Source: a virus
Taxonomy: Duplodnaviria > Heunggongvirae > Uroviricota > Caudoviricetes
Length of the DNA: 24,587 nt
Virus record (IMG/VR): IMGVR_UViG_2724679236_000014
Coordinates: 1 to 24,587 of that record
Direction: 5' to 3' (one strand)
The notes under the pieces were generated by a model, which was not told the origin of the DNA, made no database searches, and worked only from the letters and a program-made list of their open reading frames with translations. Below are positions 9,504 to 15,393 of this stretch, one piece after another. The translations under genes and the position numbers were made by a program. How positions within the stretch are numbered: the stretch's first letter is position 1; the number at the start of each line of letters is the position of its first letter.

Positions 9504-10619
9504 TTAAATCCCGGCTTTTCTGAATGCCTGAGCATCACGCTCACGGAGTTGTCCCAGCGTCAACCATTCACCTTTATCGGTGTAAAATTCATCTGGTGAC
9601 ATACCTCCATCACGAATCAGTTTTGCCCGTGTTTCTCCCACTATTTGTTTTTGCCTGGCATAAGGCTGGCGCAAAAACCATTCCTTGTAAGTCGTATCTC
9701 CGGCTACAACCCCATCCATACTTGCCCTCTCGGCAGGAGAAACATCCCGAACATCAATCCCCAGTTCCTTCGCAGATTTCAGAATAAACGTTTCTGTTGA
9801 ACGGCAGCAGAAATGAATTTTTCCCGGCCCCTGTAAATAAGGTACTTTGTGACCAATAGGTTTATTATCCAGCGTATATTTGAGGCGATCCCTGATTCGA
9901 CACTGTGGTGTAGTACGATTATCAAGTGTGGATAACCATTGTTTGCCCTTTATCAAATCATTGTTTGCCATGGCGAAACTCTCACGGGCAGTAGCGGCAA
10001 GATGCCCAACCGCTGTTTTTGCAATACTGGCCGCATTAACTCGACTCATCTGCAATGCACCATCCTGAAATCCCTTGCTGACATGCCCACGAATTTTTCT
10101 TGCGATCTGCTCATTGGTATCCCCCAGCAAAAAACCCTGACGTACCGTATTTGTAATACGCCTGAGCCGATCTGCTTCAAGGTCTGAGGCCCATTCGTTG
10201 AGTAGTCTTCCCTGAAATGGACGCGCCATTGCAGCGGCATAAAGGGTGTCAGGTGAGATACCAATCAGAGGATGAATATCCGCCACAAAATCAGGAAGCA
10301 AAGAGTCAAACAGACTTAACTGATAGCTAGCCTCATATATCGCCAGCTCGTTTAACTCTCCTGAGAGACGAGCAAACATACTGTTAATAGCAGTGCGGTT
10401 AACTTCCCTCACACTCACCAGAAGTGATTCCAGACGCGTAACGGTGAAACTCCCCGGCCCAAGATTATCCAGAGCCACCAGCAAACGAGCTGTAAGCTCT
10501 GCGTCGCTGTCGTTCAGCGTTTTCACCATTCTGGCCGCTACACCTGTGCTATAGCGAGATATCCAGATAGCATGGGCAATCGATTCATCACGCAGCCGTT
10601 CATTCACTGTTTGCATCAT
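9504..10619 (-). CDS. Head morphogenesis / minor head protein, SPP1 gp7 or Mu F-like (371 aa)
   Basis: Supplied ORF immediately downstream of the portal gene; this size and position are typical of the gp7/F family; contains a TTPQCR motif. Confidence 0.7.
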   Translation of the reverse strand: MMQTVNERLRDESIAHAIWISRYSTGVAARMVKTLNDSDAELTARLLVALDNLGPGSFTVTRLESLLVSVREVNRTAINSMFARLSGELNELAIYEASYQLSLFDSLLPDFVADIHPLIGISPDTLYAAAMARPFQGRLLNEWASDLEADRLRRITNTVRQGFLLGDTNEQIARKIRGHVSKGFQDGALQMSRVNAASIAKTAVGHLAATARESFAMANNDLIKGKQWLSTLDNRTTPQCRIRDRLKYTLDNKPIGHKVPYLQGPGKIHFCCRSTETFILKSAKELGIDVRDVSPAERASMDGVVAGDTTYKEWFLRQPYARQKQIVGETRAKLIRDGGMSPDEFYTDKGEWLTLGQLRERDAQAFRKAGI

Positions 10620-12006
10620 TGATTCCCATCAGCGTTACGCCCTGATTTTTTAATTCATCGATCACTTCCTCTGGGCGGGAGTCCTGATCGATAAATTTCA
10701 ACGCCTGCAACACCCGAACCGCATCAATCTGACGTATATCACCGCCCTGACGCAATGACTGAACAGCCAGCGCGGAGGATGAGTCAAACACCTGGGCAGA
10801 TACATCCAGTTGAGTGCGTACATCCACATTACCGCCACTGCTTTCACCTATCCATTCTGCCATTATCTGGAGGATATTATCGAGAGCATCTTCGAGAGCA
10901 TTTGCCATCGTATAGAGTGGCGAGTTTTCCTGCATCCGTTCTTCATTGGTCTGATCCACAGATTTAGTGGATGTATTTTCAGCCCGAAGAAGTTTAGCGC
11001 CAGCATGACGCATCTGATTTTCCAGTTTCTCCAGAGATGTTTCGCCAGACTCTATCGCGGCACCGCTATGCTCAACATATTCAAGGCCATTTTTTGCCCT
11101 GTCATCAAAAATCGTCGCGGTCGATGCTCCTACCATCAGTTCTTCGTTCCTGTCCAGTCCGTAAGCCACCAGCAATGGAACCCGAGCAACATGCAGAATA
11201 TTGTCCTGCTCACTCTGGCTTTGCCAGTGCTTGATATTCAGCAAACCAAGATTAAGCAATGGCGGTGTACCACGCATAAACCCTGTTTTCTTCGTATACA
11301 GTGTTACCAGAGGAATATCATCACGACTGGTATTCCATGACTCGTGAAGCGTCCAGACAGATTCGCCATTAGTACCTTCACTGCGCCGATAAATTTCAAC
11401 GCGACGGGGCATAATATGGCGGATCTGCTCTACCTTCTTCTGCCCGAAATCATCACCATCAATAATGATGACCTCTTTTATACGCAAATCAGTGAGAACA
11501 ACTTTCCCTTTTTCAACTTTCGATTTCCATCCAATAACCTGGCGTGGATTCAGCATCGTAACGTACGGGCGACCACCGGCCGCGTTTTCATCGGCTTTTG
11601 TCCGAATCTCTTTCATATCCGTTCGTGGATAGTCTACCAGCGCATGCGCCACACCATACTGAAATGCGAGGCTGAAAAATTGCTGCGCCCACATATCCAG
11701 TCGGCTCCCCTCCATGTCGATATTTTCTGCATATTCCCTGATTTTTTCCGGCGTCTCTTCACTCAGCACTGTCGGCTCTGCAAATATGCGCCCAATATTT
11801 TGCTTAATACTTTCTTCATACACAGGAAGTAGCGTAGCCACAGACAAGCGTTTTTTATATGTGTCTTCATCTTCATTAGGCCATTTAGGGAGATAATTTT
11901 CCCCCTGCCTGCGCATTTCAAGCGTGCCACCCATCAGTGCGTCGTTAATATCCCACGCCTCCAGCATATCGTTATAGTCGAGGTTGGGTGTTGATATATC
12001 AGCCAT
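10600..12006 (-). CDS. Portal protein (468 aa)
   Basis: Supplied ORF directly downstream of the large terminase gene (stop to start gap of 2 nt); size and acidic C-terminus typical of portals. Confidence 0.75.
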   Translation of the reverse strand: MADISTPNLDYNDMLEAWDINDALMGGTLEMRRQGENYLPKWPNEDEDTYKKRLSVATLLPVYEESIKQNIGRIFAEPTVLSEETPEKIREYAENIDMEGSRLDMWAQQFFSLAFQYGVAHALVDYPRTDMKEIRTKADENAAGGRPYVTMLNPRQVIGWKSKVEKGKVVLTDLRIKEVIIIDGDDFGQKKVEQIRHIMPRRVEIYRRSEGTNGESVWTLHESWNTSRDDIPLVTLYTKKTGFMRGTPPLLNLGLLNIKHWQSQSEQDNILHVARVPLLVAYGLDRNEELMVGASTATIFDDRAKNGLEYVEHSGAAIESGETSLEKLENQMRHAGAKLLRAENTSTKSVDQTNEERMQENSPLYTMANALEDALDNILQIMAEWIGESSGGNVDVRTQLDVSAQVFDSSSALAVQSLRQGGDIRQIDAVRVLQALKFIDQDSRPEEVIDELKNQGVTLMGINDANSE

Positions 12007-12008
12007 AA

Positions 12009-14324
12009 TTAAATCCGAAGTGATGTAACTCTTCCGGTCGGTTTGACAATAGGGAATTGCTTAACAATAAAATAACCTCCGGCATCATTCGGGTGATCGT
12101 TGCCAGATTTTTTATCAGGCTCACCCTTGTCATCCCAGACCTGTTGCTCCAGAGATTCGGCATATACCGGACAACGCTTCACATTAACTTTATAGCGACG
12201 CTCACCATTGGCATTGCAGAACATTGCATTCATTGAGTTAACGCGATCTTTTACTGGCGGATTCGAACTGTTTACAACAACGTTAAAACCAGCCTGTTTA
12301 AGTTGAGCAATATCCGTCGCACTTGCGTTATTTGATTTTCTGGAATCCCCGGATGCATCAGGATAAATATAAATTTCCCTTACTTTCCGATAATCATTCC
12401 CGTCATATAACCAGAAGCGCTCTTTAATAATACGGATCATATCTGGTGTATCGTAAGCGTTAATGATTTCAGTTACTGCACATGGAAGCCCAAAACGTAA
12501 CACATGAACGACTCCAGCCATTTTTCCGACGTTAAAATCCATCCCGATATATATCGGCTCACCTGGCTGTTCCTCTTCTTCGCAATTATTCAGTTTTCGG
12601 TCAAACTGATGGTAAACAGTACCACTTGTCAGGTTAGTAAACTGTCCTCGAAGATAGGCTTTAATCAGCTCTGGAGGATATGACTCAAGGAGCGAGGGAA
12701 TGTAATCTGCTGGCAAATTCTTTTCATTATCGAAAGTAGATGCCTGTACCAGACCATACAGTGAGACCAGCTCTGTTTTTTCACGTACGGCTTTAACAAA
12801 CTGCTCGTAGACAAATTTGAATCCTTCCGGCGTGGTTGTAACGTCAATACCGTTGCGAAGTCCATCAACCTTATAACGCATACGCGCAATTATCTTGCGC
12901 CACGCTGTTCTGGCTTTTTCCTTCGGCAAAATGTCCAGTTCATCCACCAGCGCATTACCAATTTTGAAACCGACGATCGTTTGCGGCTTCTCCATCGATC
13001 TGCAGATAGTGGTTCCCCGATACTGACGTCCGTAATAAAAATGAACTTCTTTATTTCCCTCGTTAATTTTTACATTTAGCCCCCAGTCGGCAGCAACTTC
13101 TTCAACTGTGGGATAAAAAATATCGCGAATTTGTGGATATGTAGGCGCAAAATATCCCTGATTGATACCCGGATGCTCCCAAATCCCCTTACATATGCCA
13201 CCACACCCAACCCATGTTTTACCGCTATTGTGATGAATCGTCCCATCAGCAGTTACGTAGCAGTTATTATCCAATACCTGGAGGTCATAATATGGCTCGG
13301 CCTCCTGCAACAGTGTTACACTCAATATGTTGCAGGTTTCGATTAAGGAGTTTGGTTTTGACGCCTCTTGACCATTTAATTTGTGATTTAGCACATCCAG
13401 AACGTACCGTTTCAGAAGTTGCTTCTCTGGCAGGTTGTGACCGCAGTCATGTTTATCGTTGCATATCTCGTTATGGGTTAACGCTGAAACAACGCCAGAA
13501 GCCTGTCCCTCGAGAAAATGCGAAGGACAGAATCCTCGCTCTTGCTGATGGTCACCGTACGTCGGCAGAGATCGCGGCGGAAGTTGGTTGCACAGAAAAG
13601 CACGTTCAAAATATTCTCCGAATTCACAACGCCAACCGGCTCCCCCGTGGCGCCAGAAAGGGTGAGTTGAACCCCAGCTTTCGTGGTGGTCGAATTGTTG
13701 ATCTGGATGGATATGCCGTTGTTCCAGCGCCTGCTGACCATCCATATATGCGCAGAACAGGCATGATGTTTGAACATCGTTTGATCGCTGAAAAGAAGCT
13801 GGGGCGTTATCTGCTGCCATCAGAAGTTGTTGACCATATCGACGGGCTTCATCTGCATAACACCCCAAGTAATCTGCGAGTTTTTGATTCAAACGTGGAT
13901 CACCTGCGTGCAACGATTTCGGGACGGCGGCCAAACTGGTCAGAAGAAGGTTTTGCGAAGATGCAAATACCTTCACCGATTCGTCCAGACTATCCACAGA
14001 TCGATAGCTACCGTCAGCGCAAAAAACGCGGTGATGTCCGCTTGCTACAAATTCTCCTCGCTGCGTCACTACTCGGTATAGATTCGCCACACCTTTTGGG
14101 TACGCACCACCACTTAGCGAAAGCTCAAATCGATTATTCTCATCCGACCAAGATAAAACGCGCATTGGTCGAGTTATTTCCTGAATGGGTAGAATCCCAT
14201 TCTCTGTAACCACAGGCGTACTTCCCCTCAGGCAACCAAAACCAGCAACATAGGCTTTAAATTTATGATGCATAGAAAGAAATCGCGCCTGAGGCACATT
14301 AAGCGTCGGAGAGATCATCTTCAT
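12009..14324 (-). CDS. Terminase large subunit interrupted by an in-frame intein in the Walker A P-loop; predicted spliced product about 435 aa
   Basis: Exteins join as ...KAYVAGFG + SGKTW..., giving the Walker A motif AGFGSGKT; Walker B-like ALVDELD and nuclease-type IYIGMDFN and YPDASG motifs lie in the C-extein. Start is uncertain (ATG at 14324, 14318 or 14345); the supplied ORF's further N-terminal extension to 14756 overlaps terS in another frame and is not taken as coding. Confidence 0.85.
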   Translation of the reverse strand: MKMISPTLNVPQARFLSMHHKFKAYVAGFGCLRGSTPVVTENGILPIQEITRPMRVLSWSDENNRFELSLSGGAYPKGVANLYRVVTQRGEFVASGHHRVFCADGSYRSVDSLDESVKVFASSQNLLLTSLAAVPKSLHAGDPRLNQKLADYLGCYADEARRYGQQLLMAADNAPASFQRSNDVQTSCLFCAYMDGQQALEQRHIHPDQQFDHHESWGSTHPFWRHGGAGWRCEFGEYFERAFLCNQLPPRSLPTYGDHQQERGFCPSHFLEGQASGVVSALTHNEICNDKHDCGHNLPEKQLLKRYVLDVLNHKLNGQEASKPNSLIETCNILSVTLLQEAEPYYDLQVLDNNCYVTADGTIHHNSGKTWVGCGGICKGIWEHPGINQGYFAPTYPQIRDIFYPTVEEVAADWGLNVKINEGNKEVHFYYGRQYRGTTICRSMEKPQTIVGFKIGNALVDELDILPKEKARTAWRKIIARMRYKVDGLRNGIDVTTTPEGFKFVYEQFVKAVREKTELVSLYGLVQASTFDNEKNLPADYIPSLLESYPPELIKAYLRGQFTNLTSGTVYHQFDRKLNNCEEEEQPGEPIYIGMDFNVGKMAGVVHVLRFGLPCAVTEIINAYDTPDMIRIIKERFWLYDGNDYRKVREIYIYPDASGDSRKSNNASATDIAQLKQAGFNVVVNSSNPPVKDRVNSMNAMFCNANGERRYKVNVKRCPVYAESLEQQVWDDKGEPDKKSGNDHPNDAGGYFIVKQFPIVKPTGRVTSLRI
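13227..14234 (-). mobile_element. Intein (336 codons) inserted in the TerL P-loop
   Basis: Block A-like CLRGSTPVVTENG starts with Cys at 14234..14232; block B-like SGHHRVF; C-terminal blocks YYDLQVLDNNCYVTADGTIHHN end with His-Asn (Asn codon 13229..13227) and are followed by Ser(+1). Codons were checked against the plus-strand sequence. Confidence 0.8.
13358..14209 (+). CDS. HTH-HNH homing-endonuclease-like ORF encoded antisense inside the intein (TTG start, about 283 aa)
   Basis: Plus-strand translation contains HNH_3-like EHRLIAEKKLGRYLLPSEVVDHIDGLHLHNTPSNLRVFDSNVDH and two HTH-like segments; TAAGGAG (13344-13350) lies 7 nt upstream of an in-frame TTG at 13358. The C-terminal ~95 codons overlap the intein N-terminal blocks on the other strand and look like non-coding read-through. 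Confidence 0.55.
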   Translation: MTPLDHLICDLAHPERTVSEVASLAGCDRSHVYRCISRYGLTLKQRQKPVPRENAKDRILALADGHRTSAEIAAEVGCTEKHVQNILRIHNANRLPRGARKGELNPSFRGGRIVDLDGYAVVPAPADHPYMRRTGMMFEHRLIAEKKLGRYLLPSEVVDHIDGLHLHNTPSNLRVFDSNVDHLRATISGRRPNWSEEGFAKMQIPSPIRPDYPQIDSYRQRKKRGDVRLLQILLAASLLGIDSPHLLGTHHHLAKAQIDYSHPTKIKRALVELFPEWVESHSL

Positions 14325-15393
14325 CACACCTAACTCTGGCATCAACCACATTAATATTGATCGCCACAGGCTGGGGATGTTCATTACCCTCCACCGTTTC
14401 GATCTCTTTGCGCAGTTTCTGGTTTTCCATTCTGCGCCGTTCAATTTCCAGTTCCTGTAGTCGCTTATCTGCACATAATGCCCCGCCAGCGGAAAGCAAA
14501 CGCAATAATTCACGCCGGGCGGCAGCTTTATTCTCCAGCAGGATCTCAACGCCGAATTTTCCGAGCTTTGCTCCTGCATACAATTGCCGCGCATTTCCAT
14601 CAAGCAAAGTGGTATCAGCCATATAAAGCTGACCTGTACCTTCTCCACCGCATTTCGGACAGTCTGGATTTGGTATGGCGCTATCAACGAAACCGAGGCC
14701 ACCATATTCAGGTTCTGGTTTACCATCTTTGGATGCCTGCGCGGCAGCCCTGTCAAATTCTGCTATATCGCGCCACTGATAGAGGTGATTCTCCCCCCAG
14801 CAATAGCGACAGTTAACACGGCGAAATTGCGCAAGCTGATTGGGATCAGCCTGCACGATGGCCATCAACTGACTCACCAGTAAATCCAGGTCTGCGGTAT
14901 AGCGTTTCTGGTAATGATTGCGAAAGTAGCTGATGGCACGAAAAACCCTAGCATTTCTAAGCATACGACTGGCATTGCTGTTTGCTGTCGCACCTTGCCC
15001 CTCGTAACCAGCCAGGCGGTATGCCTCTGTCGGCTTTTTCCCCTGAGCAACCAACATGGCGAATTTTGCCTGCTGGTCAGAAATACCGAATTCATCGGGG
15101 CAAAACGAAATTTCTTCCGTGTCCCCCTCAATCAGGAGTGCATCGGATACAGCCTTTTTTTTCTGAGATTTTCCGTTTTGCTTTTGCGCAGTCTGCGCAG
15201 TTTTTTTTCGCGCACTTTTTTGCGCAGTTTTGCGCACTTCTGTCTGCGCATTTTTCGGAGGTTTCTTGATGTAACGACGGGCTGTTGCGTAATTCAGTCC
15301 CTTTGCTTCACACCACGCCACCGGAGATACACCGGAGCGGGTGTATTCAGCAATATATTCCTGCTGCAACGCCCCCCAGTCCGGTCTGCTCAT
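14299..15393 (-). CDS. Terminase small subunit-like protein (364 aa): N-terminal HTH, Lys/Arg-rich repeat linker, C-terminal CxxC...CxxC zinc ribbon
   Basis: Supplied ORF immediately upstream of and overlapping terL; N-terminus (EYIAEYTRSGVSPVAWCEAKGLNYATARRYI) resembles TerS DNA-binding domains; CRYC and CPKC pairs. Confidence 0.6.
   Translation of the reverse strand: MSRPDWGALQQEYIAEYTRSGVSPVAWCEAKGLNYATARRYIKKPPKNAQTEVRKTAQKSARKKTAQTAQKQNGKSQKKKAVSDALLIEGDTEEISFCPDEFGISDQQAKFAMLVAQGKKPTEAYRLAGYEGQGATANSNASRMLRNARVFRAISYFRNHYQKRYTADLDLLVSQLMAIVQADPNQLAQFRRVNCRYCWGENHLYQWRDIAEFDRAAAQASKDGKPEPEYGGLGFVDSAIPNPDCPKCGGEGTGQLYMADTTLLDGNARQLYAGAKLGKFGVEILLENKAAARRELLRLLSAGGALCADKRLQELEIERRRMENQKLRKEIETVEGNEHPQPVAININVVDARVRCDEDDLSDA
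15185..15250. repeat. Array of six (T/C)GCGCA palindromic hexamers separated by T-tracts, inside terS
   Basis: Hexamers start at 15185, 15194, 15209 (cgcgca), 15221, 15231 and 15245, spaced 9-15 bp apart with intervening T runs. Confidence 0.6.

Follow-up and report, generated by a model that had tools for sequence, protein, structure and literature searches.

Layout of the terL locus

The DNA analysed here, referred to as the window, is a stretch of 24,587 nucleotides (nt) from a virus of the class Caudoviricetes (positions 1 to 24,587 of IMG/VR record IMGVR_UViG_2724679236_000014). Its minus strand encodes the large terminase subunit TerL as a single unbroken open reading frame (ORF) that runs across terL and an intein, and its plus strand carries, opposite the interior of that intein, a gene for an endonuclease with helix-turn-helix (HTH) and HNH domains. 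The terL precursor ORF (12009-14318, minus strand) specifies 769 amino acids (aa), made up of a 28-aa N-extein, a 336-aa intein and a 405-aa C-extein. In the minus frame, Pfam matches to Terminase_6N (E=5.8e-31) and Terminase_6C (E=4.6e-10) were obtained, and a block of ~340 residues near the N-terminus has no Pfam match. The N-extein (14235-14318, minus strand) ends in KAYVAGFG, the first half of the Walker-A P-loop, and the C-extein (12009-13226, minus strand, stop codon 12009-12011) starts with the second half, SGKTWVG. The loop is split as GFG/SGKT (slashes mark the splice junctions), with the intein Cys directly after AYVAGFG and TIHHN directly before SGKTWVG.

The borders of the class-1 intein (13227-14234, minus strand) follow from alleles that do not have it. 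Exactly 1008 nt are absent, in frame, from the terS-terL of ten phages at 93.5% identity (e.g. ON470581), in which the intein-less junction reads AYIAGFG/SGKTWVG. The intein-less terL of ON470581 has 1302 nt and encodes a TerL of 433 aa. In the window, the Cys1 codon lies at 14234-14232, the codon of the terminal Asn, which follows His335 as Asn336, at 13229-13227, and that of the +1 Ser at 13226-13224.

On the plus strand, the frame is open from 13166 to 14209 (331-aa ORF). An earlier note, made from the letters of this DNA, had reported a TAAGGAG 7 nt upstream of an in-frame TTG, and both are present as claimed: the Shine-Dalgarno sequence occupies 13344-13350 and is followed, after a 7-nt spacer, by a 283-aa gene at 13358-14209 (TTG 13358-13360, TAA 14207-14209), whose start position is that of the whole family, as detailed below.

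The plus-strand nuclease

The earlier note had read an HNH_3 motif and two HTH segments in the plus-strand translation, and a Pfam profile search, judged against the curated gathering cut-offs, found them above threshold. The scores were 33.9 bits for HTH_29 (cut-off 28.1), 30.1 for HTH_28 (cut-off 25) and 26.5 for HTH_23 (cut-off 24.6), and HNH_3 was marginal at 25.4 bits against 24.8. The first HTH (HTH_29, 13382-13474, plus strand, residues 57-87 of the 331-aa ORF) is found in some clades, the enterobacterial one among them, and is missing from homologues of ~232 aa in the alignment. The second (HTH_28/HTH_23, 13532-13642, plus strand) is conserved across the aligned full-length homologues. 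They are followed by the HNH (His-Me finger) catalytic core (13775-13903, plus strand; HNH_3 match at residues 188-224 of the 331-aa ORF) with the motif EHR...VVDHIDGLHLHNxPxNLRVFxSNxDH. In an alignment of 87 sequences, H140, R141, D159, H160, D162, H167, N168, N172, N179 and H182 are invariant. The conserved HNH residues presumably have the catalytic roles that we assigned to them by analogy with I-HmuI; every catalytic and near-invariant residue is intact in the window copy.

In a collection of 5.8 billion proteins, 415 homologues of the nuclease were found at E<1e-5, including records named ‘HNH endonuclease’ from Yersinia, Pseudomonas, Acinetobacter and Phycisphaerae; among the 120 matches listed, a precomputed PF13392 assignment was present for about three-quarters. 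The AlphaFold model of the nuclease, made with the 87-sequence alignment, has a mean predicted local distance difference test score (pLDDT) of 88.5. Its parts are two HTH modules of three helices each, a beta-beta-alpha core and, at the C-terminus, a domain of four helices (residues 217-273, pLDDT ~94), which probably binds DNA. This tail alone, compared with 1.84 billion representatives, gave 35 matches, all of them C-termini within the nuclease family except for one repeat-protein outlier. In a Foldseek search with the whole model, I-HmuI (1u3e) ranked 40th (E=0.85, probability 0.82, root-mean-square deviation (rmsd) 4.0 A over 96 columns), a global search that is weakened by the multi-domain nature of the model. 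It was the sole nuclease among the 50 matches listed, and the N-terminus matched the tandem HTH domains of Mos1/Tc3-type transposases.

The plus strand thus encodes a 283-aa protein of two HTH modules, an HNH_3 core and a helical C-terminal domain, and purifying selection acts on this protein in the plus frame. That the plus ORF is instead a chance open frame with spurious motif matches is a possibility of negligible weight. The HNH_3 score of the window copy, barely above the cut-off, speaks for it; the 415 homologues, the invariant core, a plus-strand identity in that core of 0.63 against 0.17 expected and the confident model have already refuted it.

As a separate observation, the third codon positions of the nuclease gene differ from those of its host gene. 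In the HNH core, compared with the C-extein of the same locus at 74 loci, A was found at 0.22 against 0.15 and C at 0.21 against 0.33, and the nuclease third positions are richer in A and T than those of the host terL (paired p<1e-8). This composition is consistent with a foreign or mobile origin.

The intein

Across 52 aligned inteins, C1, T10, G13, G60, H68, V320, Y326, G331, H334, H335 and N336 are invariant. Of the block-B TxxH motif, His68 (codon 14033-14031 in the window) is the invariant part in these 52 sequences, and the Thr position varies, the window copy having S65. The +1 residue is Ser, Thr or Cys in all 74 unique copies (Ser 72, Thr 1, Cys 1).

By sequence alone the intein is weakly recognised. 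The Pfam Intein_splicing profile scored below its cut-off on the minus translation. A profile search of the PDB matched the Spl DnaX mini-intein at E=6e-4, and its top match was a spurious designed-repeat protein; with the nuclease, the corresponding search returned HTH-type matches only. Because of these results, a comparison of folds was needed. The AlphaFold intein model was built on an alignment of 7 sequences, since just six intein-frame products were present in the protein collection. It is confident for residues 1-92 and 297-336 only: the N-terminal half of the Hint domain with blocks A and B (residues 1-92, 13959-14234, minus strand; pLDDT 76-93 over residues 1-90) and the C-terminal part with blocks F and G (residues 297-336, 13227-13346, minus strand; pLDDT 83-93), which ends in ...YYDLQVLDNNCYVTADGTIHHN. 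Between them lies a linker of residues ~93-296 (13347-13958, minus strand), which is the stop-free antisense of the HTH-HNH gene and of which residues 97-296 have pLDDT values of 22-50. Foldseek returned 34 matches at E<=0.001, all inteins or other Hint-fold domains (two Hedgehog and several BIL domains). The top matches were all inteins, namely Ssp DnaE, Spl DnaX, Npu and Ssp DnaB, Mxe GyrA and Mtu RecA; Ssp DnaE was best (E=3.4e-6, target-normalised template-modelling score 0.76), and the Npu DnaB, Ssp DnaB and Spl DnaX inteins superimposed with an rmsd of 1.6-2.0 A over ~96 columns.

According to the model, the intein is a predicted Hint fold assembled from residues 1-92 and 297-336 with the full class-1 catalytic set (Cys1, His68, His335-Asn336 and Ser+1), and the ~200 linker residues appear as a mere stop-free antisense read-out of the nuclease gene, without predicted structure.

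Distribution of the element

By tblastn, the same layout was first seen in Pectobacterium phage Ymer, in relatives of Ymer and in Pseudoalteromonas phage PHS3, all of which have an HNH homologue on the strand opposite a long terL ORF. Pattern scans then added 10 loci in GTDB genomes and 79 in IMG/VR, the latter from the best 80 of 339 confirmed matches. In 92 of the 93 loci, the frame opposite the HNH gene is open along its full length, and the one exception is truncated at a contig end; wherever the contig is uncut, the opposite ORF measures 2.0-2.8 kb. This openness holds down to 40% identity and across ~16 TerL clades, and in the enterobacterial clade, with 75-98% protein identity, the frame is open throughout. 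All 92 loci that span the C-terminal junction show the pattern ...G/C...HHN/(S/T/C)GK(T/S) in diverse TerLs. Their 74 unique inteins are 224-360 aa long, and the C-exteins form 16 clusters at 50% identity, with the PHS3 TerL falling outside the 30% single-linkage cluster. The record titles include Enterobacter, Acinetobacter, Marinobacter, Paracoccaceae, Zetaproteobacteria, Desulfobulbaceae, Phycisphaerae and metagenome-assembled genomes (MAGs) of an actinobacterium and a Thermoplasmata archaeon. In the two MAGs, the actinobacterial one (locus L010) and the Thermoplasmata one (locus L011, PUPH01000035), the element sits on short contigs, which may be mis-binned viral contigs rather than parts of the true hosts.

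The orientation of the nuclease gene is identical at all 92 loci, and it is found only inside the intein. Homologous inteins with the same interior in the sense orientation and an interrupted plus frame would speak against the earlier reading; every one of the 92 loci has the antisense arrangement with both frames open. In a single copy (L091, 3867-4733), the nuclease frame runs to the end of the intein without meeting a stop and continues into the antisense of the N-extein. Another (L080, 3876-4547) has an intein of 224 aa, the intein frame being open, and a nuclease ORF of ~166-170 aa without the HTH region; this nuclease may be decaying. A relative without a nuclease gene was also found at the same TerL P-loop site: a mini-intein of 135 aa with the junctions GGLG/C...HHN/SGKS (P0126, locus L094 1390-3195, metagenome contig k141_756757; also L095-L097).

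Coding on both strands

The two frames are offset so that their first codon positions pair with each other, while the third position of a plus codon lies opposite the second of a minus codon, and the second opposite the third. The number of stops expected in the intein frame was obtained by permuting synonymous codons within each plus ORF. Across the plus ORF, the intein frame has 0 stops in the 74 unique copies, against a predicted mean of 7.8 (minimum 1.76), and 0.2% of the permutations were stop-free; the remaining four frames have ~12-15 stops on average in the same copies. The double openness is therefore not due to chance, and the statement of the earlier note that both strands are kept open is borne out. 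In the mini-intein, the frame equivalent to that of the HNH gene has 8 stops, several of them opposite the N-terminal half of the Hint domain.

The same counts bear on a different arrangement, in which terL would be a fractured gene, its halves translated apart and joined in trans by a split intein with the nuclease gene between them. Such loci are known from phage metagenomes (PMC2677866), and some annotations look like it: a RefSeq terL described as ‘incomplete, missing N-terminus’ and a short terL in PHS3. A split intein, however, has no need of a frame that is stop-free in 74 of 74 copies where 7.8 stops are expected, and the truncated annotations are artefacts of gene callers, which yielded 6 minus-frame against 415 plus-frame products. 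We consider a fractured gene hardly credible.

To see which protein is selected in each part, the nucleotide entropy of the three plus-strand codon positions (H1, H2 and H3) was calculated from a codon alignment of the 74 sequences. At 13229-13320 and beyond 14180, H2, the wobble position of the minus strand, was highest (1.5-1.7 against 0.4-1.0; in the Hint C-terminal part 1.48 against 0.41 and 0.45), indicating that the intein alone is selected there. At 13520-13960, the plus wobble position H3 was highest (1.2-1.8 against 0.3-1.2), and here the nuclease alone is selected. Between 14000 and 14176 all three phases were low (0.5-1.0), leaving no free position.

A resampling test with 33 representatives at <60% identity gave the same zones. 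In this test, the expected value is the identity of one frame if only the protein of the other frame is kept. Observed and expected identities were 0.313 and 0.305 (plus) and 0.678 and 0.213 (minus) in the Hint C-terminal zone; 0.397 and 0.110 (plus) and 0.156 and 0.143 (minus) in the HTH segment; 0.634 and 0.174 (plus) and 0.312 and 0.225 (minus) in the HNH core; and 0.547 and 0.206 (plus) and 0.535 and 0.187 (minus) at 14000-14176. Since the zones selected on a single strand lie at expectation for the other one, common descent of synonymous sites does not account for the dual signal at 14000-14176. This dual-coding zone specifies nuclease residues 217-273 on the plus strand and residues ~20-78 of the Hint N-terminal half, including block B, on the minus strand. 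The last ~60 codons of the nuclease and the N-terminal splicing domain are co-encoded antisense, and both are constrained.

The placement given by the earlier note, a nuclease gene lying antisense between the splicing blocks, stands in part. The gene is separate and has its own Shine-Dalgarno sequence and start, but over its last ~65-70 codons (about 14000-14209) it overlaps, in antisense, blocks A and B of the Hint N-terminal half (residues ~9-78). Its ORF ends 23 nt short of the Cys1 codon in the window and 0-17 codons from Cys1 in 74 of 74 copies. Opposite the HTH-HNH core, the intein linker is kept stop-free, essentially without protein-level selection. With the nuclease frame on the other strand, the sole demand on the intein is therefore a stop-free linker, and this is enforced by selection. 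Further selection on the composition of the linker was considered and rejected: A is not depleted, and the hydrophobic fraction is only mildly lower than in the extein (0.23 against 0.28).

Expression signals of the nuclease

The distance between the nuclease start and the C-terminal end of the intein is 128-131 nt in most of the 74 unique homologues, which puts the start at 13358 in the window. The start codon is ATG in 63 of 74, and a Shine-Dalgarno sequence lies 4-11 nt upstream in 61 of 74. An upstream ATG at 13292 with GGAGG at 13280-13284, which would give a gene of 305 aa, as in some gene calls (RefSeq places the start still further upstream, at 13214), was not preferred over 13358, because stops close the frame upstream of the family start in L018, the codon is absent outside the enterobacterial clade, and its GGAG derives from conserved Leu-Gln codons of block F.

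The best sigma-70-like promoter match lies at one fixed position in roughly 40-45 of the 74 copies, with the -35 hexamer at nt 73-78 from the intein C-terminal end, a 17-nt spacer and a -10 hexamer that ends 26-29 nt before the start; in L073 and L076 it is a perfect TTGACA-17-TATAAT. A Val-Lys codon pair in the strand before block F spells the -35 hexamer. In 27 of 37 cases, the Val at this site is encoded by GTC, which makes up 16% of all Val codons in these inteins and is the rarest of them. This synonymous-site excess is evidence of selection on the hexamer as such. In the window, the family promoter position (13300-13328, plus strand) reads GCCTCC (13300-13305), 17 nt and CAATAT (13323-13328), so the -35 element is lost, as it is in the closest relatives of the window copy.

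A promoter that is conserved at synonymous sites and fires into terL in most relatives, together with an overlap that spans the first kilobase of terL, could mean that the antisense unit is mainly regulatory. Convergent transcription or antisense RNA over the 5' part of terL would then tune the terminase, and the protein would be secondary. We give this little chance. The plus frame is under purifying selection at the protein level, with wobble positions the most variable and an invariant core, which a regulatory RNA would not need, and intein-less relatives do without the antisense unit.

Proposed mobility and function of the element

Gain and loss of the element are indicated by the precisely intein-less alleles at 93.5% identity and by several further comparisons. 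Over the first ~150 nt of the C-extein by the junction, 43-45 of every 50 positions are identical to the intein-less allele, against 48-49 of 50 further off, and this lowered identity is compatible with co-conversion. Two loci (L042 and L091) have exteins that are 93% identical and inteins that are 61% identical. Judging from the sequences, the copy with the truncated nuclease (L080) and the mini-intein relative would represent the range expected of a homing cycle. The earlier note had put forward inversion, or invasion by a free-standing nuclease gene, as possible origins. The mini-intein at the same site is compatible with invasion, and it says nothing on gain as against loss.

Considering these data, we regard it as probable that the element in the TerL P-loop is a mobile intein with a homing endonuclease that is encoded separately, on the opposite strand. 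In the mechanism we propose, the precursor would splice and thereby restore the Walker-A sequence GFGSGKT. The nuclease would be transcribed from within the element, in most relatives from the sigma-70 promoter in the codons of the Hint C-terminal part, which is unrecognisable in the window copy, and would be translated from TAAGGAG and the TTG at 13358. It would then nick or cut the P-loop-coding site of an intein-less terL carried by a co-resident genome, and recombinational repair would copy in the whole element, which would amount to homing.

A number of points weigh against this proposal. Splicing, transcription of the plus strand, translation from the TTG and cleavage are all deduced from sequence and evolution. 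The identities of inteins and exteins are correlated (r=0.75), so much of the history is vertical, and homing at the present day is a presumption. A consensus scan of 12600-14500 found no sigma-70-like promoter in the window, and the window nuclease starts with TTG, not ATG; for these two reasons the window copy may be poorly expressed. The Foldseek match of the whole nuclease model to I-HmuI is weak, as its E-value shows. The inspection of IMG/VR covered the best 80 of the 339 matches, and the 74 sequences share kinship, so the counts are not independent events.

Some of these points would fit a window element that is an immobile relic, in which the intein splices because terL is essential and the intact nuclease is no longer expressed or homing, its frame perhaps being kept only by recent descent. 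The lost -35 (GCCTCC), the TTG where 63 of 74 homologues have ATG, the largely correlated identities of intein and extein, and the location of the closest copies, which are found in bacterial chromosomes or in viral contigs derived from genomes, are in line with this. Against a relic stand the intact catalytic and near-invariant residues of the nuclease, a full TAAGGAG Shine-Dalgarno sequence, a frame that is open in all members of an enterobacterial clade at 75-98% protein identity, and the 93.5%-identical alleles without intein, which point to recent gain or loss. We consider the relic unlikely.

The position of the nuclease gene, which maps between the coding regions of terS and terL, also brings to mind the packaging HNH proteins of cos phages, of which HK97 gp74 is an example; HNH genes are described as often adjoining terS and terL (PMC3592412). 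The enzyme would then be a packaging accessory lodged in terL and no homing enzyme. The ten phages whose terL is 93.5% identical have neither the nuclease gene nor the intein, and the nuclease would therefore be dispensable for packaging. In addition, HNH_3 with tandem HTH modules is the architecture of a free-standing homing nuclease, and the gene occurs only inside the intein in 92 of 92 loci. The HK97 gp74-like proteins are small, stand-alone, required for packaging and co-inherited with the terminase, unlike the 283-aa HTH-HNH_3 protein, which is absent from terS-terL modules at 93.5% identity. We consider a packaging role very unlikely.

Two further ideas about the junction were dropped. 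The nuclease gene is flanked by the two arms of a 19-nt inverted repeat (13326-13344 and 14234-14252, 84% complementary), which suggested an invertible segment. The idea was rejected because, among the 74 copies, the repeat is no better than shuffled controls beyond the closest relatives of the window, and because all 92 loci have the same orientation. One of its arms consists of the last N-extein codons and the first base of Cys1, and the other, just 5' of the Shine-Dalgarno sequence, has a plus strand that resembles the P-loop target. Target immunity through the +1 Ser codon, which is AGC in the allele with intein and TCG in the intein-less one, was considered as well. The family has AGY in 50 and TCN in 22 copies, and since both occur beside the intein, there is no general rule of immunity.

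Comparison with known systems

The earlier note suggested that an intein with a separately translated antisense endonuclease may be undescribed. Precedents do exist: Gosselin, Arsenault and Gogarten (bioRxiv 10.1101/2025.01.02.630785) described inteins of actinophages, several of them in TerL, in which an antisense gene encodes a LAGLIDADG or a VSR-like nuclease, and, as cited there, Gorbalenya 1998 and Gogarten 2002 are credited with the first antisense LAGLIDADG gene, in the Synechocystis DnaX intein. The elements described here share with them a contiguous open intein, an opposite-strand nuclease ORF where an in-frame domain would sit, an in-frame linker without recognisable structure, several cases in TerL, and signs of continuing transfer. 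They differ in the nuclease, which is an HNH_3 protein with tandem HTH modules (Gosselin et al. give HNH only as an in-frame domain), and in their hosts, mainly phages and prophages of Proteobacteria and marine or other metagenomic viruses. In the published antisense inteins, the secondary ORF typically lies outside the splicing domain, whereas here it reaches ~65 codons into the Hint N-terminal half with both frames constrained, and the promoter is embedded in Hint C-terminal codons. New relative to the known antisense-nuclease inteins are the HNH_3 nuclease, the overlap with the splicing domain and the embedded promoter; the family is large and for the most part lacks annotation.

No description of an antisense HNH gene in a terminase intein was found in the full-text literature searched, the reach of which excludes most subscription journals, and PMC5418858 and PMC6293099 do not mention an antisense-HNH terL intein. 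Whether these terminase inteins make up a family that is old, widespread and so far without a description, in which nuclease and splicing element are locked together on opposite strands by ~60 codons of dual coding and a promoter in the Hint C-terminal part, is in our opinion an evenly balanced question.

In the fractured genes of Dassa et al. (2009, PMC2677866), a split intein has a free-standing GIY-YIG or Vsr-like gene between its halves, a terminase being among the examples, and the authors' model is that free-standing nucleases invade inteins. As in those genes, a phage housekeeping gene is affected here, and a stand-alone nuclease gene with its own expression signals lies between the intein halves. 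In contrast to them, the host terL is unbroken, and the intein frame reads through the antisense nuclease gene with 0 stops in 74 of 74 copies. The ShiLan domain is a ‘hidden’ HNH in phage DNA methylases, on the same strand and out of frame, without a splicing domain (Arsenault et al. 2025, PMC11855218). It resembles the present case in being an HNH gene nested in a stop-free host frame and overlooked by annotation, and it differs in its strand, the nuclease here being antisense and within a bona fide intein. By tblastn, the HNH core of the window is 43-44% identical over ~80 aa to mycobacteriophage methylase loci (e.g. ShiLan NC_041988 44692-44913), and to judge by these sequences, HNH_3 genes nested in open host frames may share ancestry.

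I-HmuI, from phage group I introns (PDB 1U3E), likewise combines an HNH beta-beta-alpha-metal core with HTH DNA-binding modules. It differs in being encoded in an intron rather than an intein, in domain order and in the C-terminal helical domain, and the match to it is weak. Regarding the insertion site, the nucleotide-binding loop of the large terminase is also the one used by the canonical mycobacteriophage TerL inteins. These P-loop inteins carry in-frame LAGLIDADG domains or are mini-inteins.

Implications of the arrangement

If the proposed interlocking of the two genes on opposite strands is true, neither intein nor nuclease could be lost or replaced without harming the other. It would be an unusual way of stabilising the partnership of intein and nuclease against the usual decay in the homing cycle, and convergent transcription could time the nuclease relative to the late expression of terL. 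With these elements, the short list of antisense-nuclease inteins takes in HNH enzymes, and phages whose hosts are Gram-negative or marine bacteria. With 40% identity and ~16 TerL clades, the arrangement can be ancient and stable and need not be a transient accident. It also provides a clean natural case of long antisense dual coding, with a zone of ~60 codons shared by splicing domain and nuclease and flanked by control zones selected on a single strand; a third coding segment maintains a promoter at its synonymous sites as well. As to practical uses, the ~130-residue Hint core would tolerate an arbitrary insert of 200 residues, and the nuclease is a candidate nicking or cutting enzyme specific for the P-loop site.

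Annotation of the loci

Of the two overlapping genes, it is the nuclease that annotation retains: the protein collection holds 6 intein-frame products against 415 nuclease products. At the 99%-identical locus of E. coli MEI003 (L001, NZ_CP071263, 1773-4060), RefSeq lists an ‘HNH endonuclease’ and a terL pseudogene ‘missing N-terminus’. In phage PHS3 (L003, 1694-4215), the terL annotation is truncated, and in phage Ymer (L002, 1625-3889) a precursor of 754 aa is labelled ‘hypothetical protein’. With gene callers, the nuclease ORF is preserved at the expense of terL, which is dropped or shortened, and surveys of inteins in predicted proteins therefore miss the antisense-HNH terL inteins. Phage phylogenies based on terL and completeness checks would misjudge genomes with such an intein. 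In the TerL with the mini-intein (L094), the gene caller began at an internal Met just past Cys1 and dropped the N-extein.

Genomic context

In the window, the minus strand forms a head-morphogenesis operon of terS (14299-15393), then terL, then a DUF4055/portal-like gene (10600-12006). The start of the terL precursor was tentatively assigned to the ATG at 14318 by analogy with the annotated 433-aa intein-less allele; this is one of several in-frame ATG or GTG codons (14327, 14324 and 14318). The end of terS and the presumed terL start overlap by ~20 nt (14299-14318), and the same overlap is seen in the intein-less relatives.

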